Positions 13,315 through 25,866 are shown, counted from the first letter of the stretch. The stretch: DNA of 64,000 nucleotides from an uncultured Planctomycetales bacterium (GCA_964354795.1 CAYHBB010000016.1:4084-68083), one strand, 5' to 3'. Translations and numbers: made by a program. Notes: a model not told the origin generated them from the sequence alone.

Positions 13315-14259
13315 TCAAGGTTTTCCCTCCAGATAAGCAATAATTGCGGGTGCCGCTTTGCCGTATTCTTCACGCAGCATCTCACAAAACATTTTCCAAT
13401 GACGCGCGGTATCGTCTGTAGCTAATGTACGAGCAATTTCATAAAAGTTATTTCCTGCTGTCGTGGCATGTGGAACCACTATGCTCCCCTGAAATGAATT
13501 CTTATCATCCTTGTTAAGTTCGCAATGAAGCACTTCTTTATCTCCCACTACGTAATCAAGGGCGTTTGTGTAGGTGGGATTGTTTTTACGTATTTTATAT
13601 TCCTCATCCGTATGAAACCGTATCTCAGGATGCTGCGTATGCAACTCCTTGAGTAACTCCTCCGCCGAACCAGCCCTGGGGCGAAACATCTCATTATCTA
13701 ACAGCCAACTGAAATAATAATAGCCGGAACGAATTCCGGGAGGAATTCCTGCCTTCCAGTCCATAGGCACAAGGGGTTTATTGTCGCGTAAAAGCCACTC
13801 TACATAATTGGAATGCGAGTAAAAATCCTGGAGAGTATGAAATGCCTCTCCCAGCATGTACAGCACCCTATTTCTGGATTTCGGATTACCAACTACATTC
13901 GCGGCAGCTATTTTTGCAATGTTCAACTGATGCGTAATATATTCATAACTATCACGAATGCGATTATCATCAAAATGGTGATGGGGGGAATTGGTGAATT
14001 TAGAGCTGAAAGGCCAATCCTGGCTATTGCAGCCTTCAATAATCTTACCTATGCTTTGTTCTTGGAATCCCAGAGGAGTGAGGGCATCTTTCAAGATGCT
14101 TTCGTGAATGGGCTCGCCGAAACCAAAGCGGGTCTTAAAGGCATGGCTATTGTGCGGCACACAAAAAATAAATAGCGCTGCTATCCATATCCACAAACAA
14201 CCATGTTTTGACACCTTATTTACAGACCTTATGTTTATTTCGCTAAACACTATAGACAC
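13315..14259 (-). CDS. secreted Het-C-like / zinc-phospholipase-C-fold protein
   Basis: Signal/TM MSIVF...LWIWIAALFIFCVPHNSHA. Motif HTLQDFYSHSNYVEW resembles the Het-C domain signature. Memory-based. Confidence 0.4.
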   Translation of the reverse strand: MSIVFSEINIRSVNKVSKHGCLWIWIAALFIFCVPHNSHAFKTRFGFGEPIHESILKDALTPLGFQEQSIGKIIEGCNSQDWPFSSKFTNSPHHHFDDNRIRDSYEYITHQLNIAKIAAANVVGNPKSRNRVLYMLGEAFHTLQDFYSHSNYVEWLLRDNKPLVPMDWKAGIPPGIRSGYYYFSWLLDNEMFRPRAGSAEELLKELHTQHPEIRFHTDEEYKIRKNNPTYTNALDYVVGDKEVLHCELNKDDKNSFQGSIVVPHATTAGNNFYEIARTLATDDTARHWKMFCEMLREEYGKAAPAIIAYLEGKP

Positions 14260-14312
14260 TGTATAAGCCGATTATTAAGAACATCCCGGGATTAGAGAGA
14301 CGATTTTTTATT

Positions 14313-14915
14313 TCAATAAAGACTGGAGAGAATAGTCTTAACCGCTTTTTGAATTTCCTTTTCCTTATCTAAAGATGGAACGGTTGCCCTGATTTTGCAA
14401 ATATAACCCTTTAACCCTGTAATGTATAGATAAGAAAGCCTATTCCCCAGCGAAGCGCCGTCTAAGGGATCAATTGACTCCAATGAAAAAGACACAGAGA
14501 GCACCTTGAGCGTTTTGCTATTGCTTAATGAGAAATCCATCTGGGTTTCAGAAAGAATCTTCACATTACGATACAGGATATTCTCAAGTGATTTTATTTC
14601 TTCTAAGGCAGAATCTTTTGCTTTACGAATTGCTTCTGAACCAACGCCATCTTTTATTCCTTGCTCACCAAGGTTATAGACATACACAGTTAAATCTGAG
14701 CCAAAAGAGGATAGGCTGTGATAACCCAGAGAAGCACCCATTGCTTCATCCTCATAGGTCATTATGCTGCTCTCGGCAGCAAAATCTCCGATCTGTAAAG
14801 GAAGAGTACTTAAGATTTCTTGCGCTTTCTCAGCATAGGCAGAAGAAACGCTTAAGGATAATACCCCCATTAAGAAAAATATCATTATTCTTGAAATCTG
14901 AAGTTTCATTTCCAT
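14313..14915 (-). CDS. secreted hypothetical protein
   Basis: Signal peptide M(E)MKLQISRIMIFFLMGVLSLSVSSAYA. Its RBS and first 8 codons are nucleotide-level homologous to the serpin gene head. Confidence 0.5.
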   Translation of the reverse strand: MEMKLQISRIMIFFLMGVLSLSVSSAYAEKAQEILSTLPLQIGDFAAESSIMTYEDEAMGASLGYHSLSSFGSDLTVYVYNLGEQGIKDGVGSEAIRKAKDSALEEIKSLENILYRNVKILSETQMDFSLSNSKTLKVLSVSFSLESIDPLDGASLGNRLSYLYITGLKGYICKIRATVPSLDKEKEIQKAVKTILSSLY

Positions 14916-14955
14916 CCCCCCCTGTTAGTTGGCCTAATTTTCCCTGCCGAAGTGG

Positions 14956-15402
14956 TCATTGACCTTCTATATAATCTTTTATCATCTTCCAAACACCATC
15001 TTCTTTTGTAAGAGTAACTTTACCCGAAAAACCAGGATGTCCTTTTCGTCCGTAATTTATTGTAACAATATCTCCTTGAGTAGAAACATCTTTAATTTCC
15101 AGCTCAGATATATCAAAAAATGATGACTTCATCATTTTAAACATATTTTCCTTAAACTCCTGCGTAAGATCTTCCGTTTGCTCCTGCCCTTCAGGCGAAT
15201 CTAATTGCCTAAGATTTTCTTTTGTTCCGATTTCCCTGTTTAACTTTTCAAATTCATCATAATTAGCGCAAGCGTTCTTCTTCAGAAAAATAGATTTGAA
15301 AGCCCCTACAGCCTCATCTTCCATTGGAGTAGCAGAAGATAATGTAAATAACCCAAATACACAAAAACTAATTATTGCCCCAATCAAAAGATTATTTTTC
15401 AT
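14956..15402 (-). CDS. secreted hypothetical protein
   Basis: Signal peptide MKNNLLIGAIISFCVFGLFTLSSA. Directly downstream of promoter cassette copy A. Confidence 0.5.
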   Translation of the reverse strand: MKNNLLIGAIISFCVFGLFTLSSATPMEDEAVGAFKSIFLKKNACANYDEFEKLNREIGTKENLRQLDSPEGQEQTEDLTQEFKENMFKMMKSSFFDISELEIKDVSTQGDIVTINYGRKGHPGFSGKVTLTKEDGVWKMIKDYIEGQ

Positions 15403-15444
15403 ATTCCCCCTTTATCTCCTTTTTTCTTTATTCTACTCCAACCA

Positions 15445-15531
15445 AAAACCATCTACAATATATTCTATCACAGCGGGTTAAGAAGTCAAACTCCCCTTTT
15501 AACTTCGCATTCTATCCAAATTGTGAAGTTA
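15445..15531 (-). promoter_or_regulatory. repeated promoter cassette, copy A (hairpin 1 degenerate)
   Basis: Read on the minus strand: TTGACT (rc of 15484..15489), 16-nt spacer, TG-n-TAGAAT (rc of 15463..15468). Followed on plus strand by hairpin TAACTTC...GAAGTTA (15500..15531). Confidence 0.5.
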
Positions 15532-15810
15532 AACTACCCTTTGTCACCTTTTTAAAAGGCAAGTTTTCCCTAGCCTATGGGTAAACAGAGATTTAACTAA
15601 TACCACCTTAACCTATAGTAACATCTTCCAAAGGCCCCTTCTCCTGCGTGTCACTTTAAAAATCCCAGTTTTGGTAACAAAAAATAAATCCTTTGCCTTC
15701 TTATTCTTTTTTTGTTTTACCTGTTAATTATCTGTGATAAAATGTGAAATAAGATGTTTCTTAGATCAGATTTAGATGTACGAAATTTACCCAATATTGA
15801 AAGATGAAAC

Positions 15811-17067
15811 ATGCATAAAATATTTGGCTTGGCATTAGTAGGTATATTAAGCATCAATGCATTTGCGCAAAATCCTTCTCAAAAGGATTTGCCAAGAGAT
15901 TTTGATATCGATGGAATTCGGACTTTCTTAATGCATCAGCAAAGTCCCGAAACCAAAATTCTGGAAAGCTTCATCAATACTACCGATGAGATGCTTTCTA
16001 ACCAAGCTTCTACTTATGACCAGGCGCTAGCGGGTTTAGGCTTTCTTGAGCTGGGGGATCAGAATGGAGCAAAGGGAGTTCTCTCTTTTTTTAAGGCAAA
16101 GTGGTCCGATTTGGGCTTATGCAATTTTTATAACACAGAAAATGGTTCATGCGGTATAGAAGAAACTGTGCATTTAGGCCCGAATATGTGGATAGCCTCG
16201 CTGGCTTTACAATATGGTCAGAAAACAGGAGATGCCAGATTTAATAATCTAGCAGAAAAGATAGCGTTCTGGAGTATAGAATTAAACCACAATAACGGAG
16301 GAATCAGCATGGGGCCTGTTGCTGACTGGGGCGGAGATTGGCCTAATGTCTATTCTTCAGAAAATAATATTGTTGCCTTTGCGGTATTCAGGGCTTTATA
16401 TAATCATGAAAATAACCAGACTTATAGAGAGATTTATTCCCAACAAATGCAAGGGATCATTAATTTTATCAACGAAGTGACTTTACAAAGAAGTACTGAT
16501 GGAAAAATCATTAATGTAAGCGTCGGTTATAATCCCGAGGAAGGAATCTCTAGCATTTCATCATGTGATGTAGTAACCATGCTGCTTTTAGTATTTAATC
16601 CACAAGAACTTCAGCAGTTTTTTTCTATAGATGAATCGGATTTGTTAGAATTTGCTAAGGATAATTTCTTCGTCTGTGTGGATGGAATTTGTGGATATGA
16701 TTTTACCAGTGAATCTTCTACCATTTTGATCGGCAGACAGAGGATGATTTCTTTGGAATGGACAGCGCAGATGGCACAGGCGGAGATTGCAGTAGCGCAA
16801 TTCTACCAGATTAATTCGCCTCATGAAGAAAGAGCTGCAGATTATTTTAAGGAATCTGATCAACTTTTATCTGAGATCGATAAAACAATTATTAACTATC
16901 AAGAGATGTGTTTCTATCCGTATGCGACAAAAGCCGCAGAACAACCTTTTACTTTTGCGCCCTGGTGGAAAACGCCACAGGGTGACCCGGAATTTTGCGG
17001 AGCACTTTCATCGACCTTATGGAGATTGTTTGCGTATAAAGAATTTAACCCATTGGATTTACGCTAG
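15811..17067 (+). CDS. secreted hypothetical protein (418 aa)
   Basis: Signal peptide MHKIFGLALVGILSINAFA. Only large plus-strand gene in the island. No recognisable catalytic motif. Confidence 0.55.
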   Translation: MHKIFGLALVGILSINAFAQNPSQKDLPRDFDIDGIRTFLMHQQSPETKILESFINTTDEMLSNQASTYDQALAGLGFLELGDQNGAKGVLSFFKAKWSDLGLCNFYNTENGSCGIEETVHLGPNMWIASLALQYGQKTGDARFNNLAEKIAFWSIELNHNNGGISMGPVADWGGDWPNVYSSENNIVAFAVFRALYNHENNQTYREIYSQQMQGIINFINEVTLQRSTDGKIINVSVGYNPEEGISSISSCDVVTMLLLVFNPQELQQFFSIDESDLLEFAKDNFFVCVDGICGYDFTSESSTILIGRQRMISLEWTAQMAQAEIAVAQFYQINSPHEERAADYFKESDQLLSEIDKTIINYQEMCFYPYATKAAEQPFTFAPWWKTPQGDPEFCGALSSTLWRLFAYKEFNPLDLR

Positions 17068-17119
17068 ATTTAGATAGACGTAGCACTCTTTCCTCTAACT
17101 TCGCATTCTACATCTACTA

Positions 17120-17160
17120 GGATGTATAAATAAAAAGGGCTGAACGGTTAAGTCCAGCCC
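17120..17160 (-). terminator. rho-independent terminator (minus strand), copy 1 of duplicated module
   Basis: rc: GGGCTGGACTTAACCGTTCAGCCC followed by TTTTTATTTATAC. Confidence 0.5.
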
Positions 17161-17208
17161 TGAAATTTGCTCCCCATCGTGAAAGATTTTCGAACTTTTC
17201 TGGCTTCA

Positions 17209-17266
17209 GGGGAGGTGGAAAAATTATGTCAAGAACTGGCTTTTAGTGCTTAATACCACCTCCCCC
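17209..17266. repeat. long inverted repeat GGGGAGGTGG ... CCACCTCCCC (10-bp stem, about 38-nt loop)
   Basis: Seen directly. Followed on plus strand by TTTTCTTATTTT. Lies between the converging ends of 15811..17067(+) and 17291..17668(-). Confidence 0.4.
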
Positions 17267-17290
17267 CTTTTCTTATTTTAAACTAAAATT

Positions 17291-17668
17291 TTATTCGGTG
17301 CCAATACGGGGAGGAATTTCATTTGCGATAGCGGTGGCTAATTCATGTTTACCATTTTTTTCATAAATTTTTATTATTTCGCTTAAATAATACCCTACGG
17401 GGCTTATTGCATAAGCTTCGTAAAAGTCAGCGATAGCTCGGTTTAGGTCACCTTTTTTAGAATAAACTGCAGCCCGCTCACCATAGGCTTCCGCATAATT
17501 AGGATTCATTGAGATAGCTTGATTAAACTTACTTATTGCCTCGCTATATTTACCTTGTTTAACAAATTCCATTCCTTTATTAAACGCATCAGTTGATGTT
17601 TCTGCAAAAGAATTGCTAAATATCAAGAGTATTAAAAGCAGAACTATGAAACCTATTTTCTTTCTCAT
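17291..17668 (-). CDS. small secreted TPR-repeat protein
   Basis: Signal peptide MRKKIGFIVLLLILLIFSNSFA. TPR-like AxxYxxxGxxYxxxG spacing (EAISKFNQAISMNPNYAEAYGERAAVYSKKGD). Confidence 0.55.
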   Translation of the reverse strand: MRKKIGFIVLLLILLIFSNSFAETSTDAFNKGMEFVKQGKYSEAISKFNQAISMNPNYAEAYGERAAVYSKKGDLNRAIADFYEAYAISPVGYYLSEIIKIYEKNGKHELATAIANEIPPRIGTE

Positions 17669-17713
17669 CTTTACTTTCTCCTTTCTACTTTTTTCATTAA
17701 TTTACTTTATAAC

Positions 17714-17800
17714 AAAAACCCGCTGCAATATATTCTATCACAGCGTGTTAAGAAGTCAAACTCCGCCTAACTTCGCTTTTTTCCCAATTACGAAGTTCAA
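17714..17800 (-). promoter_or_regulatory. repeated promoter cassette, copy B
   Basis: -35 rc of AGTCAA 17754..17759, -10 rc of ATTCTA 17733..17738. Stem CCCGCTG/CAGCGTG flanks conserved CAATATATTCTATCA. Second hairpin TAACTTCG...CGAAGTT. Confidence 0.55.
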
Positions 17801-17854
17801 GGCACTATATATGCGTCCTAGTTTATTCGAATAGCGAAGTATCCCTTGATCTAA

Positions 17855-17891
17855 TTATAAATAAAAAGGGCTGAACGGTTAAGTCCAGCCC
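17855..17891 (-). terminator. rho-independent terminator of serpin gene (copy 2 of duplicated module)
   Basis: rc: GGGGGCTGGACTTAACCGTTCAGCCC + TTTTTATTTAT. About 35 nt downstream of serpin stop. Identical hairpin to the one at 17137..17160. Confidence 0.6.
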
Positions 17892-17926
17892 CCGTAAGAA
17901 TGATGGTATTTACTTGAACTACTCCT

Positions 17927-19126
17927 TTACTTCGCTGGATTACTAACTCTACCCACAAATAAAATATTTCCTGTTTTATTATCGTGGATTAAGAATATAA
18001 ACGGATGATCTGCTTTAAATACTTTTCTTATTTTTCGCTCTACCATACTTGTGATGCCCATCCTAACAGCGGTTGCGGCAGCAGCTTCGGTACCCTCTTC
18101 ATTTACATCCACAAAAGCTTTGTGGATCACTTGGCTTATATACAAATCCTTTTGTCCCGTCATCCCGGAGAAATCTGCATTTTCACCAAAGGCAGTTGGC
18201 ATCCCCATCGCAGCCAAGTCTACGGACATAGAATACTCAGTTTCAAACTTGAACTTAGGCAGATAAACATCCACTTCCTCCCGGCTAAGCATCCCCTCCA
18301 AATCAGACAGTCCTTTTGAACTCAAAGATTCTTCCATAGCCCCTAAGTCATTATCTTTTGGCAGGATGATAAACATGGATAATTCCTTGCCTTCATAGGG
18401 CAATTCCAGAACCTGAAGCTTGTCTGTCTCCGCGTAATATAATTCTTTAGCAAACAACTGCATCGTTTTTACCTTAATTGTATTCACCGGGCTTGTCCTG
18501 AAATCCTGGTCTTTGGTATTACTCTTTTCAAACTGTTCTACCCATTTTCCTTTGAAGTAAACCGCATTGGTGATAACTAAGCGTGTGTTACCATCAAGGG
18601 AAGAGATCAGATTTCTTATCTTATAATTTGTCTGCTCCTCAATCCAGCTGTTTATTATCCTGCACGATTCGCTATTTTCGTTTTTAAAATCGAGGTTTCT
18701 TGCTTCCCCGCCGTAATAATCTTTTATTACCTTAAGGTATTCTTCCGGGAAGGGATATTTTTTCTGTGCCCATAAGGCATTTGCCGTATAGAGTTGGTAT
18801 TGTTCGTGCCCCTTGTTGATCTGATTATATATTTCTAGAAAAGAATTCCTGCGCACAGAATCATCTTTAGGAAAATGAAAAACTGACTGAATTTCATCTG
18901 CTGTTAGTCCTCTAGCTCCTTCATATGTCATGGCTAGTGCCGAAGAGATGCTAAACGGAGAAAAGAAAATATTGCCTTGTTTTGATTTATATTTGGAATA
19001 AAGCTCAAAGGTGAATTGATTATTGGCATTGACAACGCTACTTACGTCTTGGGCAAACGCCATATGAGATATAAATAATACCCCTATTAAGACAAACATC
19101 ATTACTTTGGAATTCTGAAGTTTCAT
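17927..19126 (-). CDS. serpin (serine protease inhibitor), secreted
   Basis: Start at MKLQNSKVMMFVLIGVLFISHMAFA (AAAGGAGGAT SD). The track's MIEYIAAGF N-terminus is encoded by the promoter repeat. Hinge/RCL EEGTEAAAATAV and C-terminal FKADHPFIFLIHD...ILFVGRVSNP are serpin signatures. Confidence 0.8.
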   Translation of the reverse strand: MKLQNSKVMMFVLIGVLFISHMAFAQDVSSVVNANNQFTFELYSKYKSKQGNIFFSPFSISSALAMTYEGARGLTADEIQSVFHFPKDDSVRRNSFLEIYNQINKGHEQYQLYTANALWAQKKYPFPEEYLKVIKDYYGGEARNLDFKNENSESCRIINSWIEEQTNYKIRNLISSLDGNTRLVITNAVYFKGKWVEQFEKSNTKDQDFRTSPVNTIKVKTMQLFAKELYYAETDKLQVLELPYEGKELSMFIILPKDNDLGAMEESLSSKGLSDLEGMLSREEVDVYLPKFKFETEYSMSVDLAAMGMPTAFGENADFSGMTGQKDLYISQVIHKAFVDVNEEGTEAAAATAVRMGITSMVERKIRKVFKADHPFIFLIHDNKTGNILFVGRVSNPAK

Positions 19127-19145
19127 TTTCATCCTCCTTTTCAAA

Positions 19146-19250
19146 GCAAAGCCCGCTGCAATATATTCTATCACAGCGAGTTAAGAAGTCAAACTCTCCC
19201 TAGCTTCGCTTTTTACCCAATTCTCACTTTCGCTTTTTACTCGATTTTGG
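19146..19250 (-). promoter_or_regulatory. repeated promoter cassette, copy C
   Basis: -35 rc of AGTCAA 19187..19192, -10 rc of ATTCTA 19165..19170. Stem CCCGCTG/CAGCGAG. Confidence 0.55.
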
Positions 19251-19363
19251 CGGGTTTTCCGTGCTTGGATGGGTTTCCGAGCTTCGCATCCTGCTTCCGA
19301 AGGCGAAGCATTCTTTGACCTACTTATAAATTACTCTCTTAAGTTTAACTCTTTGTTTCATAG

Positions 19364-20005
19364 CTAATATTGATTATAATTAAAGCCTCGCCCTTCTTCC
19401 AAGCATACAGGGATACCCAACTTTTCTATCGCTTGAACAATCTTTTCGTCTTTTGGCTTATATATTTCTTCCATTCCTTCTTTCATCCAGGAATGAAATT
19501 CGACATATAACTTATCAATATATTTAATGCTCCCGTCTTTCAACATTTGATCAAGTATCGGATATTCAGCCGCTTCTATGTCCATTTTTACATAAATAAT
19601 ATCTTCCTTCTTAAAGTCTCTCTCCAACCATTTGCCAAAATCAATAGATTCAACATGTACTGGCACCTTCTTCTTATCTGAACCTAGGGCGTTCACGACA
19701 TTCCCACCTAAATCATTAATTCCAAAGTAAAAATTTACTCCTTTATCATCAATCCACATTGCCTTATTAATCACTGTCACATTTGGCTTCTTCGGTATAA
19801 AACGAATCAACTCAGGATTAGCTTCAAAAGCAAATATCTCCCATTGATATTTTGAATACAAATTACTTTTTTCGAATGCTTCAATACTATCTCCCTTATA
19901 AGCTCCCCCATCTATAAATATATGCCTCCTGCCGGGCACGCAGCCATAAATTATTATTGTTAATAGAAATATTATAAATATTTTCACGAATATTCGATTT
20001 CTCAT
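19364..20005 (-). CDS. FkbM-family methyltransferase-like protein with N-terminal TM/signal
   Basis: Start at MRNRIFVKIFIIFLL... (the track's MIEYITEGF comes from the promoter repeat). DGGAYKGDSIEAF...FAFEANP resembles the FkbM methyltransferase motif. Confidence 0.4.
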   Translation of the reverse strand: MRNRIFVKIFIIFLLTIIIYGCVPGRRHIFIDGGAYKGDSIEAFEKSNLYSKYQWEIFAFEANPELIRFIPKKPNVTVINKAMWIDDKGVNFYFGINDLGGNVVNALGSDKKKVPVHVESIDFGKWLERDFKKEDIIYVKMDIEAAEYPILDQMLKDGSIKYIDKLYVEFHSWMKEGMEEIYKPKDEKIVQAIEKLGIPVCLEEGRGFNYNQY

Positions 20006-20040
20006 TCTATCGCCTCCTTCGTTACTCTCTTGCCGTAAAT

Positions 20041-20125
20041 AAAAACCCTCTGTAATATATTCTATCACAGAGGGTTAGAAAATCAAACTACTCTAACTTC
20101 GCATCCTGCTTCCAATCACGAATAT
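20041..20125 (-). promoter_or_regulatory. repeated promoter cassette, copy D (compensated stem)
   Basis: Stem CCCTCTG/CAGAGGG around the same loop AATATATTCTATCA. -35 rc of AATCAA (TTGATT), -10 TAGAAT (rc of 20058..20063). Confidence 0.5.
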
Positions 20126-20184
20126 AATCGAGCAAACAAAAGTTCTATTTAAGCGGATTGCCGAACTGGTAAAAACCTAAGATA

Positions 20185-22026
20185 TTAGTGACCGGTGCTA
20201 CGGGTTGGCCTAGTCGCGTCGCGCAAGACAATGGGGCTTGCGCCAAAATTATAGGTAAGGCTTAAATAACCCCCTCTTTTTTGATACGAGCGCTGTCCGT
20301 GATCCGGCCAGGTGGTAAAATTATCTCCCGAAGCGGAGAGCAGCCAATTTTCAGTCAGTCTGTAATTTAAGCTGGCTGCCGCATAACAAGTGGGATGATT
20401 TGACTTTTTGTGGTTGACATCGGGCTTATTTTGAAATTCATATCCTCCGGATACTTTACCTTCCACAAAAAACTTCTTGCTCAAATCAACTCCGGAGTAG
20501 ACGCCTAATGCGTGTGAAAGAAGCGAACGGGGATTAAAATAGCCGTGATTCAGCTGAGGTTCTGCCCAGCTTGAATAATAATAATTATAATAAAGTTTAA
20601 CGTAAGGCTTTTGTTTAATGCGGTACTCGGCTGTGCCAAAGATCTGGTTCTGCCGGTTGTCATCAGTAAAATAACTCCGCTTATATTTTACATTAAAGAA
20701 CCAGAAACGATTCGGCCTGAAATCTGTGGAAAATGTCGAACTATTGGTGATAACTTTATAAGCCAGTGCGTCATTATCCTCGAACGTCTCGCGGTCATAA
20801 GCAAGGTCAAATCTCCAGAGATCATCCGGCTTGTAAGTAAACCAGGTATTGGTGGTAAAAGGAGTAAAATCGACTTTTCTAAAGTGCGTCTCATATACAA
20901 AGGTGTTGAATTCAAAGGCGTCTCCTAAAACCTTGCTCAGACCCAGGCCCCAGCGGTTCGCCGCTATGGTCGGGTCAAGGCCGTTTAGCGGGAAAGCAGG
21001 ATCCGCGGAAACCGCCCCCTTCTTGCGCAACACCTGACGCTCGTATATGGCGTCAACCGTCGTCGAGTAATTCAAGTGCATGCCTGAGCGCAGGCCTTGT
21101 GTAGACACTGTCTGCGGAGTGCTGTCCCTTGAGAAACGGCCATACGACCTGGCAAAGGGAAGCTGAGAATTCTTTATTTGATAATAAAGATCTTCTGCCT
21201 CTTTACGGTTAGGTTCGAATTCCAACAATTCTTTTACTTTTTCAACCGCCCGCACGTCATCTCCAAGCCAATGCAGGGCAAAAGCCATCCCTTCGATAGC
21301 GTCGAGATTTTTGGGATAACGCCTCAGTATCTCCTCGTACCGGTTGACACCCTTACGATGATAACCCTGCCACACTAAAACTCTGGCCTGATTATTAAGC
21401 GCGTTAAGGTTCCCGGGATCTTTATCAAGGACCTTTTGATATAGGGCGTACGACTCCTCAAGCTTATCCTGAAAGCTCAAGACATTAGCCTTGCCAAGGA
21501 GAGCATCCAAGTTATCCGGCCAACGATTAAGAGCAACGTCATAAATTTCTATAGCTTCGCTTTTTTTATCATTCCAAACAAGTGCTTCGGCCAATCCCAG
21601 AAATATCCGCTGGTCTTCGACTTTTAACGCAAGGCCTTCCTTATATACCTCTATTGCCTTAGGTATTTGACCGCTCCACTTATACTGCTCAGCCAGCTCC
21701 CGGATTATCTCATTGGTGCGCTCCGGATGCGTCGAACGCACCTCTTCGAAAAGCTCAATTGCCTCCTCATGCTTATCTGCATACGAATAAACACGTGCCC
21801 ACTCTATGACTAAGCCCGGATCCTTACGCAGGCCTTCGCTGATACCAGGATAAACCTCAAGAGCTTCGCTATATGCCTTTTTCTCTACCAGGCTCCGTGC
21901 TTTACTTAATTCGTTATTAAAATTATCGTCGGCAAAAGCGCTGCCTACCAAACATGCGCCGATAAAAAATGCCAAAATTAATTTGATATTCCGGTTTTTC
22001 ATTTTTACCTCTTCGAAACTACCCAC
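20185..22026 (-). CDS. TPR-repeat outer-membrane beta-barrel protein (PgaA/BcsC-like exopolysaccharide exporter)
   Basis: Signal peptide; multiple TPR-like repeats in N-terminal half. C-terminal half Tyr/Asn/Gly-rich amphipathic strands ending ...LSLTYNF. 22-nt overlap with the upstream GT2 gene. Confidence 0.55.
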   Translation of the reverse strand: MGSFEEVKMKNRNIKLILAFFIGACLVGSAFADDNFNNELSKARSLVEKKAYSEALEVYPGISEGLRKDPGLVIEWARVYSYADKHEEAIELFEEVRSTHPERTNEIIRELAEQYKWSGQIPKAIEVYKEGLALKVEDQRIFLGLAEALVWNDKKSEAIEIYDVALNRWPDNLDALLGKANVLSFQDKLEESYALYQKVLDKDPGNLNALNNQARVLVWQGYHRKGVNRYEEILRRYPKNLDAIEGMAFALHWLGDDVRAVEKVKELLEFEPNRKEAEDLYYQIKNSQLPFARSYGRFSRDSTPQTVSTQGLRSGMHLNYSTTVDAIYERQVLRKKGAVSADPAFPLNGLDPTIAANRWGLGLSKVLGDAFEFNTFVYETHFRKVDFTPFTTNTWFTYKPDDLWRFDLAYDRETFEDNDALAYKVITNSSTFSTDFRPNRFWFFNVKYKRSYFTDDNRQNQIFGTAEYRIKQKPYVKLYYNYYYSSWAEPQLNHGYFNPRSLLSHALGVYSGVDLSKKFFVEGKVSGGYEFQNKPDVNHKKSNHPTCYAAASLNYRLTENWLLSASGDNFTTWPDHGQRSYQKRGGYLSLTYNFGASPIVLRDATRPTRSTGH

Positions 22027-23339
22027 TCACGCTTACCCAAAAGCTCATCCTTGATAGCAACTACCTGTATTGTGTTCTTGAATAATGTATACCAGAAAGC
22101 GCAAAATGCATAGTAAAAGTACTGCCAGACTGGGGCTCTCGGCAGCGATGCGTTTTTATAAGCGACCAGGGCTTCAAATGGCCCACTAAGCATCACAAAG
22201 AATAAAGCAAACCAGATAAAGCTGTTCATGGGAAAATCTATCTTGCCTCTTGTCAACCAGAACGCGAACACTACTGGAAAAAGTAAATGGCTTAAGATAT
22301 CGTAAACAACGCGCCACATCAACAATGTAGTCCACATAAACTTCTGTAAAATATTAAGGAATTTGCTCTTTAAGATAGCTATCTGGTATTTCACTGATAC
22401 CTGGAACCACCCCTGGGCCCAGCGCTTCCTCTGGAACCAAAGCCCTGCCAGCGTCTCAGGGGCCAGCTCAGTCGAGATTATGTTACGGTCATGGACAATA
22501 TGGTTTCCTTGCAGTATGGCGCGCAGGGTGGCGTCAATATCTTCAGTCAGCCTATCCGGAGAAAACTTTATTTCCTTGATAACCGAGCTGCGCCAGTAGC
22601 CGTTTGTGCCGCCGAAAAGCGTAGAATCAAAAAGCCTAGACTTAGCGTAATGACTAATGCCATAAATAGCCTCAAACTCCACCTCAACCAATGAGCATAC
22701 TGGGCTACTTTTTCCGTTTCGGATCTTGCACCTGCCCTGGACTACATTATAACCTTCGTCCAGCCAACGCCAGGCAAGCTTCAAGCAATCCGGAGCCACC
22801 AGGTGATCGGCATCCAACAATACGATCATCTCCCCGGATGCAATCTCAAGGGCATAGTTTAGATTTTCACTCTTGCTCTTGGAGCCGTAAGCGTTTGCCA
22901 ATATGAGTTCAGGCCACTTATAAGCAAGCTCCCTTAAACGCGGCTCTATCTCCTCCATATGCGGAGTGTTGTAGGCCAGGATCAGCTCAATCCCGGCCTC
23001 CGGACGCTGGATACGCTCTAGAATATTTAAAAGCGTATCTTCAATAACCTCAAGCTCATTAGGAAGATAAGCACTGACGATAAATGTGGTTTTGGGCAGG
23101 ACAATATGCTTTGCGGTAGGCAACTCTTTGAATGCTCCCCGCCTGAAAGCGCTAAGGGAATACATATACGACAACCCAGCCTGGAATATAAATAGAGAGA
23201 CAAGAAAATAATAAGAGTAATTCAGGAAAGCCGGCTTGCGTAATCCAATGAGGTAGAAAATAAGGGTGGGAATTACCAGAAGAATAAGTAAAATCTCAAA
23301 GATTTTGCTCCATTCTACCGCACGCTTCTTCTCGCCCAA
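22005..23339 (-). CDS. processive family-2 glycosyltransferase (PgaC / cellulose-synthase-like polysaccharide synthase)
   Basis: TM helices at both ends, DADHL (DxD), QRKRW (Q-x-x-R-W processive GT2 motif). Confidence 0.7.
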   Translation of the reverse strand: MGEKKRAVEWSKIFEILLILLVIPTLIFYLIGLRKPAFLNYSYYFLVSLFIFQAGLSYMYSLSAFRRGAFKELPTAKHIVLPKTTFIVSAYLPNELEVIEDTLLNILERIQRPEAGIELILAYNTPHMEEIEPRLRELAYKWPELILANAYGSKSKSENLNYALEIASGEMIVLLDADHLVAPDCLKLAWRWLDEGYNVVQGRCKIRNGKSSPVCSLVEVEFEAIYGISHYAKSRLFDSTLFGGTNGYWRSSVIKEIKFSPDRLTEDIDATLRAILQGNHIVHDRNIISTELAPETLAGLWFQRKRWAQGWFQVSVKYQIAILKSKFLNILQKFMWTTLLMWRVVYDILSHLLFPVVFAFWLTRGKIDFPMNSFIWFALFFVMLSGPFEALVAYKNASLPRAPVWQYFYYAFCAFWYTLFKNTIQVVAIKDELLGKREWVVSKR

Positions 23340-23342
23340 CTT

Positions 23343-23534
23343 TTATCTCTCCAGTAGCGATAGCATCTCTTCACCTAAAGCGATATGGCGTTTTTCATCT
23401 TCAGCTATGCCGGAAAATAATTTGCGCTTAGCCTCATCTTTTGTTAATTCCGATAATTCCGTATATATGGCAAGAGCATTTTTATCGGCTGCCGTAATCT
23501 GGCGCAATCTTGCTATCAATGTATTTCGGTCCAT
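23343..23534 (-). CDS. small hypothetical protein (possible C-terminal half of a split ferritin-like protein)
   Basis: 63 aa with EDEKRHIALGEEM (E-x-x-H-like). Starts 2 nt after the stop of the preceding small ORF in a different frame. Confidence 0.25.
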   Translation of the reverse strand: MDRNTLIARLRQITAADKNALAIYTELSELTKDEAKRKLFSGIAEDEKRHIALGEEMLSLLER

Positions 23535-23536
23535 AG

Positions 23537-23752
23537 TTATGCCAAGCTTTCTCTTGTTTCTGACACTATTTTCTTATGGCGTAATGTATCTGCCTTGATA
23601 CCGAGAAGTATATCTTCTATGCGCTTACGCGCCCCTTCGGACAGATCATCAGGCAAAGACTTAGGATGACAAAGGTCAATGAGCGTACTCGCCATTTCTT
23701 CTTCCATTATATAAGCCCGTTTAAGCTTGTCTAAAAGTTCTTCTTTATTCAT
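23537..23752 (-). CDS. small hypothetical protein (possible N-terminal half of split gene)
   Basis: 71 aa, helical, Glu-rich (YIMEEEMASTLIDLCH). Confidence 0.25.
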   Translation of the reverse strand: MNKEELLDKLKRAYIMEEEMASTLIDLCHPKSLPDDLSEGARKRIEDILLGIKADTLRHKKIVSETRESLA

Positions 23753-23796
23753 AAATACTCTTCTTTGCCCATATACAGGTAACGATTATAGGAAAA

Positions 23797-23982
23797 TTAT
23801 AACCTTTTTTTCATTTGCCCTTTTACGATCTTTTCAGCCTGCAACCAATAATCAAAATCACGGCCACTCTTGCATCCATCCTTTTCCCACAGCTCCTTCG
23901 CCTTCTCTTTAATACAACTCAATAATTCTTCCTTTTCAAATCTCTTTTCCATGACTTCCTCCTTTTTAATGTCACTCTGCAA
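23797..23982 (-). CDS. small DUF2934-like protein
   Basis: KELWEKDGCKSGRDFDYWLQAEK resembles the DUF2934 consensus (memory-based). True start may be the internal MEKRFEK. Confidence 0.35.
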   Translation of the reverse strand: MQSDIKKEEVMEKRFEKEELLSCIKEKAKELWEKDGCKSGRDFDYWLQAEKIVKGQMKKRL

Positions 23983-23989
23983 TTTTAAT

Positions 23990-24140
23990 TCTACTCCAAA
24001 TATAAACCCTCTGCAAGTGTTTTACTTACAGAGGGTTGAAGTATTTTCTCATCACAGTGGACGAAATTAGAAACTATTTGATAGCGGCTATTATGTCAAA
24101 TACTCTTTCCCCTAACTTCGTATCCTGCTCAGAATGTGAA
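23990..24140 (-). promoter_or_regulatory. divergent copy E of the repeated cassette
   Basis: Hairpin CCCTCTG...CAGAGGG (23998..24026) with a different loop. GTCAAATACTC (rc TTGACA) and terminal hairpin CTAACTTC...GAAGTTAG. Longer spacing than copies A-D. Confidence 0.35.
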
Positions 24141-24185
24141 GTTAGTTTCTTTAGTCAGGCGGAGAATTTCAAGGCAATAAAGGAG

Positions 24186-24455
24186 CTAGACTCTGTAGCG
24201 CTTGTAGAGCTCGACCCGGACCGGGCATTTGCAGATACCGGCGATACCGTAGGAGAGGAATTTCTCGCACTTGCGGCCTTCTCTTTCCTTCACAAAGAGA
24301 TTCTGATCAGCCAAGAGGTATTCGGCTTTGCATACTGTGCCATCGGGATCAGATAAGCATCTATGGGAATGCAGACATTCTCCGGATTTGGTCAGGATCT
24401 CCGGGCTCACGTCATATTTTTTTGTTTCCATAATAACCTCATACAGGCTACACAA
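24186..24455 (-). CDS. Cys-rich hypothetical protein
   Basis: 89 aa with 8 Cys (CLHSHRC, CKAEY, CEKF, CKCP). Confidence 0.3.
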   Translation of the reverse strand: MCSLYEVIMETKKYDVSPEILTKSGECLHSHRCLSDPDGTVCKAEYLLADQNLFVKEREGRKCEKFLSYGIAGICKCPVRVELYKRYRV

Positions 24456-24596
24456 TTTAATTACATATTATACGTGTTACACATTATATGTACCAGTTGA
24501 GGCCTGTCAAGGGAATATTTAAGAATTACCTTGCCAAAAATGTAAGTTTGTATAGAATAAGGGGGCTTAAAACCTAATAAACCCGAGGAGGAAAAT

Positions 24597-24926
24597 ATGC
24601 TTAAAAGATATCAGGTATTATTGACCGACTGGCAGGAAGAATACGTGAAGTTTCTGGTAGAAAAATACGACCTAAGCTTTTCTGAGGTCATCAGGATACT
24701 GATCGTGCTGGAGGCGATCATGATCACCGGCCACCTTCACCCCGAATATAAAACCGGTATATCTATGAAAAAACTGGCGGTAGAGCTTAAGAAAATGGCT
24801 AATCCTAACCGCAACGAAGCTGAGATGTATAAGCTGATCTCAGCCGGATATTTCGAGGCGCGTAAAGCCATTGAATACCGGATGAGCAAAGAAAAACAGA
24901 AAGCAAAGAAAACAAAGAAAGCTTAA
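24597..24926 (+). CDS. ribbon-helix-helix-like small DNA-binding protein (hypothetical)
   Basis: N-terminal RYQVLLTDWQEEYVKFL...SFSEVIR fits a beta-strand then helix RHH pattern. GGAGG SD upstream. Confidence 0.4.
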   Translation: MLKRYQVLLTDWQEEYVKFLVEKYDLSFSEVIRILIVLEAIMITGHLHPEYKTGISMKKLAVELKKMANPNRNEAEMYKLISAGYFEARKAIEYRMSKEKQKAKKTKKA

Positions 24927-25479: not shown

Positions 25480-25866
25480 TTATTTAATGTTGACAACAAA
25501 TTCTTCAATTTTTACCGGCGCTACACCCTTTTCCCAGGAACGTAAATATTGAAAGGATATATTTGTGCTACCGGGTTTAAGCGCTTTAAAGGTCCACTGC
25601 TGCTCGCATCCTGCTCCGATAAGAGTCGTATCTTCGGTCAGATATTCAGTGCCTAATAGCTGCAGGAATTGCGGATCAAGCGGCTTTGCCAGCTGCCACT
25701 CATAGCCGGTAGAAGGATTGGCGTAAACAGAGATGGCAAACTCCTCCCCTGCTTTAACTTCCATCAACTTCTTACCGTCAACAACCTTGACCACTGAGCT
25801 GTCTTTGCAGGCAAATAAACTCAAACAGCATAACAAAAAACCAAGCGCGAATATCCTGCTTTTCAC
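25480..25866 (-). CDS. chagasin-like (I42) peptidase-inhibitor lipoprotein
   Basis: Lipobox MKSRIFALGFLLCCLSLFAC. Motif NPSTGYEW matches the chagasin NPTTGY(S/E)W signature; about 110-aa mature size. Confidence 0.5.
   Translation of the reverse strand: MKSRIFALGFLLCCLSLFACKDSSVVKVVDGKKLMEVKAGEEFAISVYANPSTGYEWQLAKPLDPQFLQLLGTEYLTEDTTLIGAGCEQQWTFKALKPGSTNISFQYLRSWEKGVAPVKIEEFVVNIK

Follow-up and report, generated by a model that had tools for sequence, protein, structure and literature searches.

A conserved terminator-like hairpin with a built-in predicted sigma70 promoter as a candidate stop-and-restart module in Omnitrophota

Analysis of a 64-kb stretch of DNA (the window) revealed five copies of a short element, each located 5' of one minus-strand gene, and wider scans identified more than 100 further copies in metagenome-assembled genomes and metagenome contigs, nearly all from Candidatus Omnitrophota. 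The element is probably a compact stop-and-restart module, consisting of an Omnitrophota-wide terminator hairpin family with a built-in sigma70 promoter; lower probability is given to an operator, a switch in the 5'-UTR or a site of recombination. Polymerase arriving from an upstream gene or tRNA would copy both arms, followed by formation of the hairpin and release at the U-run. Polymerase starting at either of two predicted promoters, P1 or P2, would yield RNA with the 3' arm alone or with no arm, and the proposal is that this RNA, not having both arms, escapes termination. One 55-nt module could then both insulate and restart transcription 5' of each gene. The start sites and termination itself are predictions from the sequence, and the initial annotation of a shared, functional-looking promoter module 5' of unrelated genes is supported. 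The module is tidier and more conserved than usual, yet built from known parts.

The five repeats were confirmed by repeat search, reading of the minus strand and MAFFT alignment, with A-D near-identical and E diverged (Table 1). The genes downstream belong to unrelated Pfam families. Copies are confined to these five sites within the 64 kb, with five in 10 kb and none in the remaining 54 kb. A 34-nt consensus with up to three mismatches matched A, B and C (0 matches expected), and a 16-nt core matched A-D (0.65 expected). A covariance model run across the window gave 74-81 bits for A-D, which are near-identical along a 62-nt core, and 21.5 bits for E, and matched nowhere else. Core similarity among A-C is 88-100%; B and C share 88% identity along an 84-nt repeat, along which A and D share 63-65% identity with B. 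Copy A is the sole window copy with a divergent upstream neighbour (15811..17067, plus strand).

Table 1 Features of the five element copies and neighbouring repeats in the window.
Feature	Position	Strand	Evidence or remark
Gene downstream of A	14956..15402	-	
Copy A core block	15438..15499	-	covariance-model match 75.6 bits; promoter called by scan
Copy A -35 TTGACT	15489..15484	-	
Copy A -10 of TG-a-TAGAAT	15467..15462	-	
Copy A decayed hairpin	15479..15447	-	fold -6.5 kcal/mol, z = -0.4
Copy A U-run	15448..15444	-	
Copy A putative P2, -35 TTGTAG	15458..15453	-	sequence; 17-nt spacer
Copy A putative P2, -10 TAGAAT	15430..15435	-	sequence; family-wide TAnnnT peak, offset 13 after 3' arm
Copy A upstream hairpin 1 (AACTTCAC ... 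GCGAAGTT)	15501..15530	-	repeat family D5; sequence
Second terminator type (D4), copy 1	17125..17160	-	repeat family D4; terminator called
Antisense 24-codon module (module ii)	17170..17253	+	sequence
Gene downstream of B	17291..17668	-	
Copy B core block	17708..17769	-	covariance-model match 78.5 bits; promoter and terminator called
Copy B -35	17759..17754	-	
Copy B -10	17737..17732	-	
Copy B hairpin, then U-run	17749..17717 (scan: 17745..17721)	-	fold -14.0 kcal/mol, z = -4.2
Copy B upstream hairpin 1 (AACTTCG, 15 nt, CGAAGTT)	17769..17797	-	sequence
Second terminator type (D4), copy 2, just past serpin gene	17856..17891	-	repeat family D4; terminator called 17893..17866
Serpin gene downstream of C	17927..19126	-	
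Copy C core block, 5' of serpin gene	19141..19202	-	covariance-model match 73.6 bits; promoter and terminator called
Copy C -35	19192..19187	-	
Copy C -10	19170..19165	-	
Copy C hairpin	19180..19152	-	fold -16.1 kcal/mol
FkbM-like gene downstream of D	19364..20005	-	
Copy D core block, 5' of FkbM-like gene	20035..20096	-	covariance-model match 80.5 bits; 14-pair terminator called
Copy D -35 TTGATT	20086..20081	-	
Copy D -10	20064..20059	-	
Copy D hairpin	20076..20044	-	fold -20.8 kcal/mol, z = -7.5
DUF2934 gene downstream of E	23797..23952	-	
Copy E hairpin only (AACCCUCUG-UAAGU-AAAAC-ACUUG-CAGAGGGUU)	24005..24037	-	match 21.5 bits; 14-pair terminator called; loop without -10; fold -21.8 kcal/mol, z = -6.3
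Copy E putative P2	23988..24016	-	sequence; family-wide positional peak; 17-nt spacer, U-run included
Copy E putative P2, -35 TTGCAG, overlapping 3' arm	24016..24011	-	
Copy E putative P2, -10 TAGAAT	23993..23988	-	
Copy E separate upstream promoter-like site, TTGACA	24099..24094	-	sequence only; 17 nt to TAGTTT
Copy E separate upstream promoter-like site, TAGTTT	24076..24071	-	sequence only
Copy E upstream hairpin 1 (TAACTTC ... GAAGTTA)	24113..24144	-	repeat family D5; sequence

The conserved block has sharp edges, extending from -7 to +48 as GGGGAGT-TTGACTTCCTAA-CCCTCTG-TGATAGAATATATTG-CAGAGGG-TTTTTGTTT. Across the family, the hairpin is composed of AACCCUCUG, 5 bp, a 5-nt loop, 5 bp and CAGAGGGUU, followed by a U-run in which positions +42 to +45 are 91-100% T in the family alignment. 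The arms of the inverted repeat are as originally described (CCCGCTG/CAGCG(T/A)G on the plus strand in B and C, CCCTCTG/CAGAGGG in D and E), but in place of a 7-bp stem and 15-nt loop there is a 14-bp stem with a 5-nt loop and then a U-run, which is the shape of an intrinsic terminator. A terminator scan called 10-14-bp stems with 5-nt loops and T-tails at B, C, D and E, and these copies fold with energies between -14 and -22 kcal/mol, z ranging from -3 to -7.5. The stem of copy A is decayed, with 5/7 pairs left. Invariance of the loop AATATATTCTATCA across A-D was borne out. The second hairpin, TAACTTCG...CGAAGTTA, had been placed after the element; in gene direction it lies 5' of it instead, and it is intact in A, B and E only. 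Upstream hairpin 1 (copy A type) is lineage-specific, found only in the window and the close relatives L002, L008, L042, L062 and L063, and the copy B hairpin shows an A-U to G-C change in L042.

A sigma70 promoter had been claimed for all five copies. This holds for A-D but not for E, whose hairpin loop contains no promoter. P1 (TTGACT, 16 nt, TG-a-TAGAAT) is a near-consensus promoter that marks the main subfamily of the hairpin family. Copies A, B and C match it exactly, D differs in carrying TTGATT, and an independent consensus scan called it in all of A-D, scoring 9-10/12 with TG. Its -35 lies 6 nt 5' of the stem, the 5' arm makes up most of the 16-nt spacer, and the extended -10 forms the upper stem and loop. 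The P1 start is predicted at about 7 nt past TAGAAT, exactly where the 3' arm begins. P1 transcripts would therefore lack the 5' arm and could not form the hairpin, which argues against the 5'-UTR RNA structure suggested initially. Among copies found with the covariance model, independently of the search patterns, the -10 stays TAnnnT (TAGAAT, TAAAAT, TATAAT) and the -35 stays near TTGAC. The ORFs starting MIEYI (GTG ATA GAA TAT ATT, for example at 19174 and 20068) are indeed artefacts, and the true starts, with Shine-Dalgarno sequences, are at 19126 and 20005.

A second predicted promoter, P2 (TTGCAG, 17 nt, TAAAAT), frequently shares bases with the 3' arm. Its -35 joins the last three bases on the loop side to the three that open the 3' arm, and its 17-nt spacer runs through the remaining arm and the U-run, followed by a -10 of TAAAAT, TAGAAT or TATAAT. 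TAnnnT has a sharp peak at a distance of exactly 17 nt from TTGCAG, present in 21/73 hairpins of the P1 type and 14/28 of the others, over a background of about 2 per offset; only 3/6 positions of the P2 -35 agree with TTGACA. Comparison of copies shows that hairpin and promoter are separable: some copies keep the hairpin and U-run without the -10 and/or -35 (loop UAACA-AUUUA-UGUUG; window copy E), and P1 is kept with the 3' arm lost in L075, L055 and L087.

These promoter positions bear on the possibility of a 5'-UTR attenuator or riboswitch-like leader, in which transcription would start 5' of the hairpin and a regulated terminator would act on the downstream gene's own transcript. The TTGACA-17-TAGTTT site of copy E, 34 nt 5' of the hairpin, would transcribe the hairpin in its entirety, and a few copies, such as L075, carry a different hairpin and U-run just past the P1 -10. 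The consensus promoter scan made no call at the copy E site. In A-D and most copies, however, the sole good promoter is predicted to start inside the hairpin, and the absence of conservation 5' of -8 across the family argues against an aptamer. The tRNA-Asn gene of L005 directly adjoins the block, and Rfam gave no match, whether with the gathering threshold or with a cut-off of E <= 1. We consider such a leader quite improbable.

The initial annotation had regarded the stem changes as compensatory, and a covariation check of 76 hairpins found them to be genuine: six pairs covary, and there are 37 double-change cells versus 4.8 in shuffles (0/500). Overall, 97.2% of cells are paired, where the basal stem reflects pre-selection of hairpins for at least 6/7 pairs and the upper stem is free of pre-selection. 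In the upper stem, the pair at columns 15-23 is UA in 55 hairpins, CG in 7, GC in 7 and UG in 4, and the orthologous serpin copies of L008, L042 and L014 have C-G, U.G and U-A at one same stem pair. The consensus stem carries two G.U pairs, which points to folding of the sense strand, and the fold is better on that strand in 72/76 copies.

The same data weigh on the palindromic operator proposed earlier, in which a dimeric regulator would bind the arms around the -10 and repress or activate all copies as one regulon. Several observations are consistent with it. At the base of the stem, the arms form a near-perfect inverted repeat whose spacing is fixed, and the arm sequence is conserved far beyond the needs of pairing. 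Base pairing alone does not account for the dominance of CCCUCUG/CAGAGGG across species, which also weighs against the stop-and-restart module. The hairpin is also kept in divergent contexts, where there is nothing for a terminator to stop, and a common 20-nt loop insertion has a length of about two helical turns. However, that insertion is recurrent and tolerated, the G.U positions of the upper stem make the DNA palindrome imperfect in 51-59/76 copies, and the half-sites covary, with upper-stem pairs switching among the three Watson-Crick types U-A, C-G and G-C. The better folding of the sense strand, the conserved U-run 3' of the hairpin and the occurrence of same-family hairpins with no promoter to regulate also argue against an operator. 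The RHH protein (24597..24926) suggested as the binder is conserved in the two closest relatives only, and its gene is unlinked to the element elsewhere. An operator is accordingly a doubtful explanation, with a low probability.

Gene context is consistent with the stop-and-restart module. The downstream gene is co-directional in 111/130 copies and convergent in 2, and its start codon, preceded by a Shine-Dalgarno sequence, lies a median of 42 nt beyond the hairpin. The upstream gene is co-directional in 90 copies and divergent in 19. In L005, the 3' end of tRNA-Asn lies one base before TTGA, so the hairpin would be the sole terminator available to this tRNA. Within the window, the decayed stem belongs to copy A, whose upstream gene is the only divergent one. 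Other observations count against the module: stems are intact in most of the approximately 14 promoter-type copies with a divergent upstream gene, and weak stems account for 31% in divergent contexts versus 15% elsewhere, a difference that is not significant. Some copies already have another terminator upstream, as for B after a D4 terminator and L047 after a tRNA terminator. Of the secretome-island regulon proposed at the outset, the secretory bias stands, since N-terminally hydrophobic, secreted or membrane-type proteins are enriched downstream (53/109 versus 80/295 in the background), while island-specificity does not, the same 55-nt block occurring across many Omnitrophota species with many different genes.

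The further copies were found by pattern scans and the covariance model, and cover 17 genome loci and 74 metagenome loci. Most were found with patterns fixing TTGA, TAAC and TGATAGAAT, so the conservation of these motifs is partly by construction. The strict pattern gave only 1-3 matches per genome, and copy number is apparently low. Clusters occur elsewhere, with six copies in 8 kb of L014, in both orientations, and four in 4 kb of L072. The block precedes unrelated genes, yet also orthologues (serpin; a 78-aa membrane protein), and the modules attached to its upstream side are of at least five unrelated kinds. Recent duplication of ordinary paralogous intergenic DNA without a function of its own would fit the 88-100% likeness of A-C along the core. 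This reading is highly improbable and already contradicted by the cross-species comparison: the block recurs in many species in which the coding DNA on either side can no longer be aligned, L014 and the window align solely at the element and at the start of the serpin gene (its 5' end), and compensatory changes and position-specific promoter features are present.

Alternatively, the element, with or without its upstream modules, may be mainly a recombination or cassette-boundary site, at which copies exchange gene cassettes by homologous recombination or through a site-specific enzyme, with promoter and terminator features as passengers, in the manner of mobile promoters. Clustering of copies in the window, L014 and L072, the sharp block edges and the diverse upstream modules are in line with such exchange. 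Synteny with the nearest relative, the 92.5%-identical sister genome L001, stops at 20042, the end of hairpin D, after which the next gene differs, and a second homology block breaks off precisely at the 5' border of C. In total, 21/97 internal homology ends fall within 30 nt of an element, compared with 4.3 expected, and the two D4 copies constitute a perfect 36-nt direct repeat flanking the entire B unit. Alignment ends at conserved blocks are nevertheless partly expected, because flanking intergenic DNA diverges faster. The element has no terminal inverted repeats, target duplications or integron attC features, stays 5' of orthologous genes across species, and occurs in both orientations in L014; of the 66 Pfam families to which window proteins were matched, the 25 most frequent include no recombinase or transposase. 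Together, we regard a recombination site as unlikely.

Comparison with known systems places the stop-and-restart module near several repeat families. In Neisseria DNA-uptake-sequence terminators, Correia elements and REP/BIME, a hairpin stem is conserved through membership of a repeat family, and Correia elements can also supply promoters. The element resembles these in having terminator-like hairpins with a repeat-family stem sequence. The stem 7-mer CCCTCTG is not over-represented outside hairpins in the window (2+2 occurrences versus 4.5 and 2.2 expected, all inside hairpins D and E), which argues against an uptake-sequence type signal. The element further differs in having no terminal inverted repeats, no target duplications and, among the 25 most frequent Pfam families, no RAYT or transposase genes, and its copy number per genome is apparently low. 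Integron cassettes share the arrays of small, unrelated, mostly co-oriented genes and a hairpin-forming repeat with an AAC...GTT base. Their attC sites are characterised by paired R and L boxes, R''/L''-L'/R', together with extrahelical bases and a core of GTTRRRY; the cassettes themselves are promoterless and located near intI. An attC identity was rejected in view of the perfect 14-bp stem without bulges, the 3' core GTTTTTG and the built-in promoter, and the 25 most frequent of 66 Pfam families from 52 scanned window proteins include no integron integrase.

Putative mobile promoters are 50-100 nt long, at least 80% identical and located 5' of non-homologous genes, with several copies per genome, sometimes common to different genera, as is the case here (Matus-Garcia, Nijveen and van Passel 2012, PMC3488235); B and C, 88% identical along 84 nt, fall within these bounds. 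Such promoters are defined by similarity alone, whereas the present element has a terminator hairpin, two predicted promoters and covariation, and its defined anatomy, covariation and conservation 5' of orthologues argue for long-term function over merely recent mobilisation. Coupling of promoters and terminators has been reported at genome scale in bacteria ('Widespread coupling of promoters and terminators of transcription in bacteria', bioRxiv preprint 10.64898/2026.08.19.745784), the likeness being termination and next-gene initiation on the same short DNA. The element appears to differ in being one multi-copy family with phylum-wide, base-for-base conservation, and possibly in its predicted geometry, in which the -10 is apical and transcription begins where the 3' arm begins.

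On the bottom strand, the loop TAGAATA carries TATTCT, facing an antisense mini-ORF. A symmetric -10, TAnnnTA, is the register typical of divergent promoter pairs, and the loop resembles bidirectional promoters in this respect. It differs from them in that sequence inspection of its antisense side revealed no recognisable -35 or Shine-Dalgarno sequence. Module ii lies between the gene B stop and a terminator, with CTCCCC at 17170..17175 and a reading frame from GTG at 17179 to TAA at 17253 that translates as VKDFRTFLASGEVEKLCQELAFSA; its family comprises 63 copies with codon-like periodicity.

Copies A–D, read on the minus strand in the direction of their genes, share a common block, GGGGAGT TTGACTTCTTAA C(C/A/T)C(G/T)CUG TGATAGAATATATT(G/A) CAG(C/A)GGG TTTTTG, situated 25–60 nt ahead of the Shine-Dalgarno sequence and start codon of the gene that follows. 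This repetition is beyond chance, and the genes behind A–E are mutually unrelated by their Pfam assignments; exact-protein lookup of the TPR protein behind B returned no record. A covariance model run over the 64-kb window scored A–D at 74–81 bits and E at 21.5 bits, with no other match. The five copies thus lie within 10 kb, with none across the other 54 kb, which is ordinary chromosome carrying trp genes, RF-1, Rho, L31 and type II secretion/pilus genes. The 'MIEYI' ORF starts, which the initial annotation had taken for artefacts of the element, prove to be just that, and the annotation is improved thereby.

Positions and properties of the element copies and associated features, in the window unless a locus is named (L numbers denote further loci carrying the element; L001 is the sister genome)
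Feature	Position (strand)	Description	P2	Fold energy (kcal/mol)
Element A		Precedes gene for 148-aa protein without Pfam match; stem decayed	17-nt spacer	-6.5
Element B		Precedes gene for 125-aa TPR protein	18-nt version (TAAATT)	-14.0
Element C		Precedes serpin gene	absent	-16.1
Element D		Precedes FkbM-type methyltransferase gene	absent	-20.8
Element E		Precedes gene for DUF2934 protein	17-nt spacer	-21.8
Synteny end at hairpin D	20042; L001:5942
Homology-block end at 5' edge of C	19201; L001:6948
36-nt direct repeat	17125-17160; 17856-17891	Terminator GGGCTGGACTTAACCGTTCAGCCC plus T-run; spacing 731 nt
Antisense module	17170..17253 (+); ~24058-24190 (+)	Second is a split copy inside E
Antisense module, examples	L026:793-864; L014:5418-5489; L040	Four copies in L040
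Loop insertion CTACCTGACGGTAGACAGGTAT	L013:1605-1680; L023; L032; L034; L037; L043; L090
Group I introns in tRNA-Asn(GTT)	L046:6179-6376 (-); L049:9930-10126 (+)	Rfam RF00028; 67-89 bits across all five introns
Further group I introns	L015:2681-2894; L039:7432-7703; L072:3643-3844	RF00028
Serpin gene	17927-19126 (-)
Chagasin-family gene	25480-25866 (-)	Peptidase inhibitor (I42, E = 7e-27)
Cysteine-rich protein gene	24186-24431 (-)	81 aa
Promoter of cysteine-rich gene	24483-24510 (-)	Perfect TTGACA-16-TATAAT
RHH-like gene	24597-24926 (+)	109 aa; divergent from cysteine-rich gene
Promoter of RHH-like gene	24531-24558 (+)	TTGCCA-16-TAGAAT
ORF antisense to cysteine-rich gene	24036..24356 (+)	106 aa; probably spurious
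Hairpin 1	15501-15530; 17769-17797; 24113-24144; additional copy 19280-19308	AACTTCG, 15 nt, CGAAGTT
Hairpin 1, decayed	~19203-19232; ~20097-20122

Copies missed by the search patterns retain AACCCUCUG ... CAGAGGGUU and the U-run, with different 15-nt 'loops': UAACA-AUUUA-UGUUG, UAAGU-AAAAC-ACUUG (that of window copy E), CAAUA-CAUUU-UAUUG and UGCUA-AAAUA-UAGUA. In all of these the outer five bases of each side pair with one another, and the promoter-type loop UGAUA-GAAUA-UAUUG forms two G.U and three A-U pairs in the same way, indicating that the true structure is a 14-bp stem with a 5-nt loop. Analysis of 76 hairpins, selected on the basal and not the upper stem, so that their basal-stem statistics are biased, revealed that 97.2% of cells are paired, that six pairs covary, and that 37 cells carry double-sided changes compared with 4.8 in shuffles, none of the 500 reaching 37. 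The upper-stem pair at columns 15-23, for example, is UA in 55 hairpins, CG in 7, GC in 7 and UG in 4. For the basal stem, the less biased set of pattern-derived copies gave 15 double-change cells compared with 3.4. In orthologous serpin copies, one basal pair goes from C-G (window) through U.G (L042) to U-A (L008), a classical compensatory path. These counts bear out the earlier proposal that the stem changes are compensatory. In 72 of the 76 copies the sense strand is the more stably folding one (medians of -19.3 kcal/mol for sense and -13.5 kcal/mol for antisense), and an independent scan called terminator-like sites in four window copies, B–E.

The sigma70 promoter overlaid on the hairpin, P1 (TTGACT, 16 nt, TG-a-TAGAAT), was called by scan in A–D. 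In the pattern-missed copies, -10 variation is limited to tolerant positions (TAGAAT, TAAAAT, TATAAT), which matches the expectation for a working sigma70 promoter. The promoter proposed in the initial annotation is supported at the sequence level in A–D. The usual distance from -10 to start site is ~7 nt. We infer that P1 transcripts would start where the 3' arm begins, at C34/A35, and would thus hold only half of the hairpin. The -35 of the putative second promoter, P2, is TTGCAG, composed of the last three 'loop' bases and the first three arm bases. Exactly 17 nt past it lies a sharp TAnnnT peak, mostly TAAAAT, TAGAAT or TATAAT, present in 21 of the 73 copies of P1 type and in 14 of the 28 other hairpins, compared with ~2 per neighbouring offset. 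Some copies retain the hairpin and U-run without the -10 and/or -35, and others (in L075, L055 and L087) retain P1 and have lost the 3' arm. Hairpin and promoter are therefore separable, the pattern expected of two functions overlaid on one sequence. As a separate observation, at least seven copies on different contigs carry a 20–22-nt insertion, CTACCTGACGGTAGACAGGTAT, just past TAGAATAT of the element loop; it is able to form its own small hairpin, the outer stem is intact and, if P1 is used, the insertion would lie at the very start of the mRNA.

The sequence evidence makes it reasonably probable that the element is a stop-and-restart module. Incoming transcripts would fold into the hairpin and be released at the U-run, while transcripts born at P1 or P2 would escape termination there because they lack the 5' arm. 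This reading leaves unaccounted for the conservation of stem sequence beyond pairing, across species, and the persistence of the stem where there is no obvious transcript to terminate. The initial annotation had offered a palindromic operator or a 5'-UTR RNA structure. The operator is disfavoured by the G.U pairs in the consensus, the covariation of the stem pairs, the existence of hairpins that have no promoter, and the U-run, and the RHH protein suggested as regulator has no linkage to the element past the closest relatives. Attenuation in a 5'-UTR is also disfavoured, since there is zero conservation upstream of -8 and the sole good promoter has its predicted start within the hairpin. A possible exception is copy E, which carries a TTGACA-17-TAGTTT of its own upstream.

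A pattern with only TTGA, TAAC and CTGTGATAGAAT fixed matched 18 loci in a species-representative genome collection, 17 of them genuine. Thirteen are labelled Candidatus Omnitrophota, and the other genuine loci belong to MAGs labelled Planctomycetales, Patescibacteria or Margulisiibacteriota. The single Thermococcus match falls inside a gene and was discarded as chance. A second pattern, with the stem left free, matched 74 metagenome contigs, and the two patterns pooled gave 93 distinct copies, whose conservation, numbered relative to TTGA, spans -7 to +48 with abrupt edges on both sides. The co-regulation idea of the initial annotation is supported insofar as the element is a shared, functional-looking promoter module ahead of unrelated genes; its presence in the 17 genome loci and 74 contigs argues against a regulon specific to this island. 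The covariance model recovered a roughly equal number of further copies missed by both patterns, often tightly grouped (six in 8 kb in L014, four in 4 kb in L072, three in 1.3 kb in L006). With the strict pattern, only 1–3 matches were found per genome, contigs of 0.35–1.2 Mb included, and the per-genome copy number appears low.

Gene calls were heuristic and the context counts are approximate: the downstream gene is co-directional in 111 of 130 copies and convergent in only 2, with none called nearby in the remainder, and the upstream gene is co-directional in 90 and divergent in 19. The median distance from hairpin to start codon is 42 nt. Within the window, stem decay is confined to A, which is also the sole copy with a divergent upstream neighbour. 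In the full set of loci, weak stems make up 31% when the upstream gene is divergent versus 15%, a difference that is not significant (n = 13), and perfect stems are kept in several divergent-context copies. In L005, a tRNA-Asn gene terminates one base ahead of TTGA, and in L046 and L049 the element is abutted by the 3' end of a tRNA-Asn(GTT) with a group I intron in its anticodon loop. ARAGORN misses these split genes. A tRNA 3'-half att site was considered and dropped, since the 'half tRNAs' of these two loci are complete tRNA-Asn genes split by the intron.

Several homology boundaries coincide with elements and point to a recombination or cassette role, which we nevertheless regard as unlikely. 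The window's closest relative is the sister genome LacPavin_0920_SED3_MAG_45_14 (92.5% identity across 4.9 kb), which places the window itself in an Omnitrophota bacterium. Synteny with this genome ends exactly where hairpin D ends; the next gene there encodes a 241-aa TPR lipoprotein, versus FkbM in the window. The 5' edge of C coincides exactly with the end of another homology block, and there the sister genome has another promoter-like site and a gene for a 72-aa membrane protein. Identical 36-nt copies of a second, unrelated terminator flank the B unit, and internal homology ends fall near elements in 21 of 97 cases versus 4.3 expected, an enrichment partly expected because unconserved spacers diverge faster. 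Against such a role, no recombinase was seen among the 25 of 66 Pfam families listed, nor were terminal repeats or attC features. An integron attC site was rejected on its differing anatomy, with no integrase among those 25 of 66 families. The 36-nt repeat pair encloses element B, the TPR gene and a mini-ORF module, and looks like a duplication or insertion footprint; decayed copies of the repeat follow other genes in L001, L002 and L042.

The GGGGAG at the element's 5' edge is shared with a second repeated module of ~95 nt, which follows the stop codon of the upstream gene and precedes the terminator. Antisense to the flanking genes, this module reads as a 24-codon ORF, (M/V/L)DEFRNWCMTEEAEKLYKELAMVT followed by a stop, with peptide variants DEFRNWCMTEEAEKLYKELA. 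Among 63 distinct copies in the loci, 42 have the stop at codon 25 and only 35 have ATG, GTG or TTG as first codon. Third codon positions are clearly the most variable (entropy by codon position of 0.90, 0.76 and 1.24). The mini-ORF is without a Shine-Dalgarno sequence, RNAalifold found no consensus structure on either strand of the module, and the peptide has no Pfam match. The mini-ORF is puzzling and has no description in Pfam or Rfam. It is rather unlikely that block and antisense module together make up a self-contained cassette of ~160 nt, copied and exchanged within and between Omnitrophota genomes; such a cassette would be a preferred gene-swap breakpoint whose symmetric TAGAATA -10 would fire both ways, driving the downstream gene on one side and, on the other, a conserved peptide of 24 aa. 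It would be a promoter-carrying analogue of integron cassette boundaries.

Searches of Rfam at the gathering threshold (whole window and 15 loci) and at E ≤ 1 (the region and L026) returned no family for the element or the antisense module, the sole matches being tRNAs and group I introns nearby. An uptake sequence was rejected since the stem 7-mer is not over-represented outside hairpins, and a phage origin since the promoter pattern had no match in viral contigs; the stem-only pattern matched four unrelated terminators there. Sigma70 promoters and intrinsic terminators are classical parts, and Omnitrophota are uncultured; we know of no experimental knowledge of how they start and stop transcription. 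Promoter-terminator overlap has very recently been reported as widespread (bioRxiv 10.64898/2026.08.19.745784), and the element also fits what PMC3488235 defines as a putative mobile promoter family. What is unusual in the element is the placement of the putative -10 in the terminator apex with a predicted start on the opening base of the 3' arm, the interleaving of a candidate second promoter with the U-run, and the apparent conservation, base for base, of all 55 nt within a candidate phylum, where the patterns fixed TTGA, TAAC and CTGTGATAGAAT. The element is a 55-nt signal predicted to end incoming transcripts and begin ones on which that terminator has no effect. Confirmation would make it a remarkably clean case of promoter-terminator superposition in nature; it would then also supply a ready-made part for insulated expression and mark variable, secretion-enriched Omnitrophota gene islands.

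The chagasin-family gene lies close to the serpin gene, and the neighbourhood thus encodes two unrelated protease inhibitors. The cysteine-rich protein gene lies at the upstream (high-coordinate) edge of the island and, together with the RHH-like gene, is kept only in L001 and L042. Hairpin 1, a separate inverted repeat preceding the element, shares the 7+15+7 layout of the main hairpin. Its loop in copy A, L002, L042 and L062 again contains TAGAAT, 13 nt past TTGAAC or TTTAAC, and hairpin 1 may be an older copy of the main hairpin's design that has decayed.
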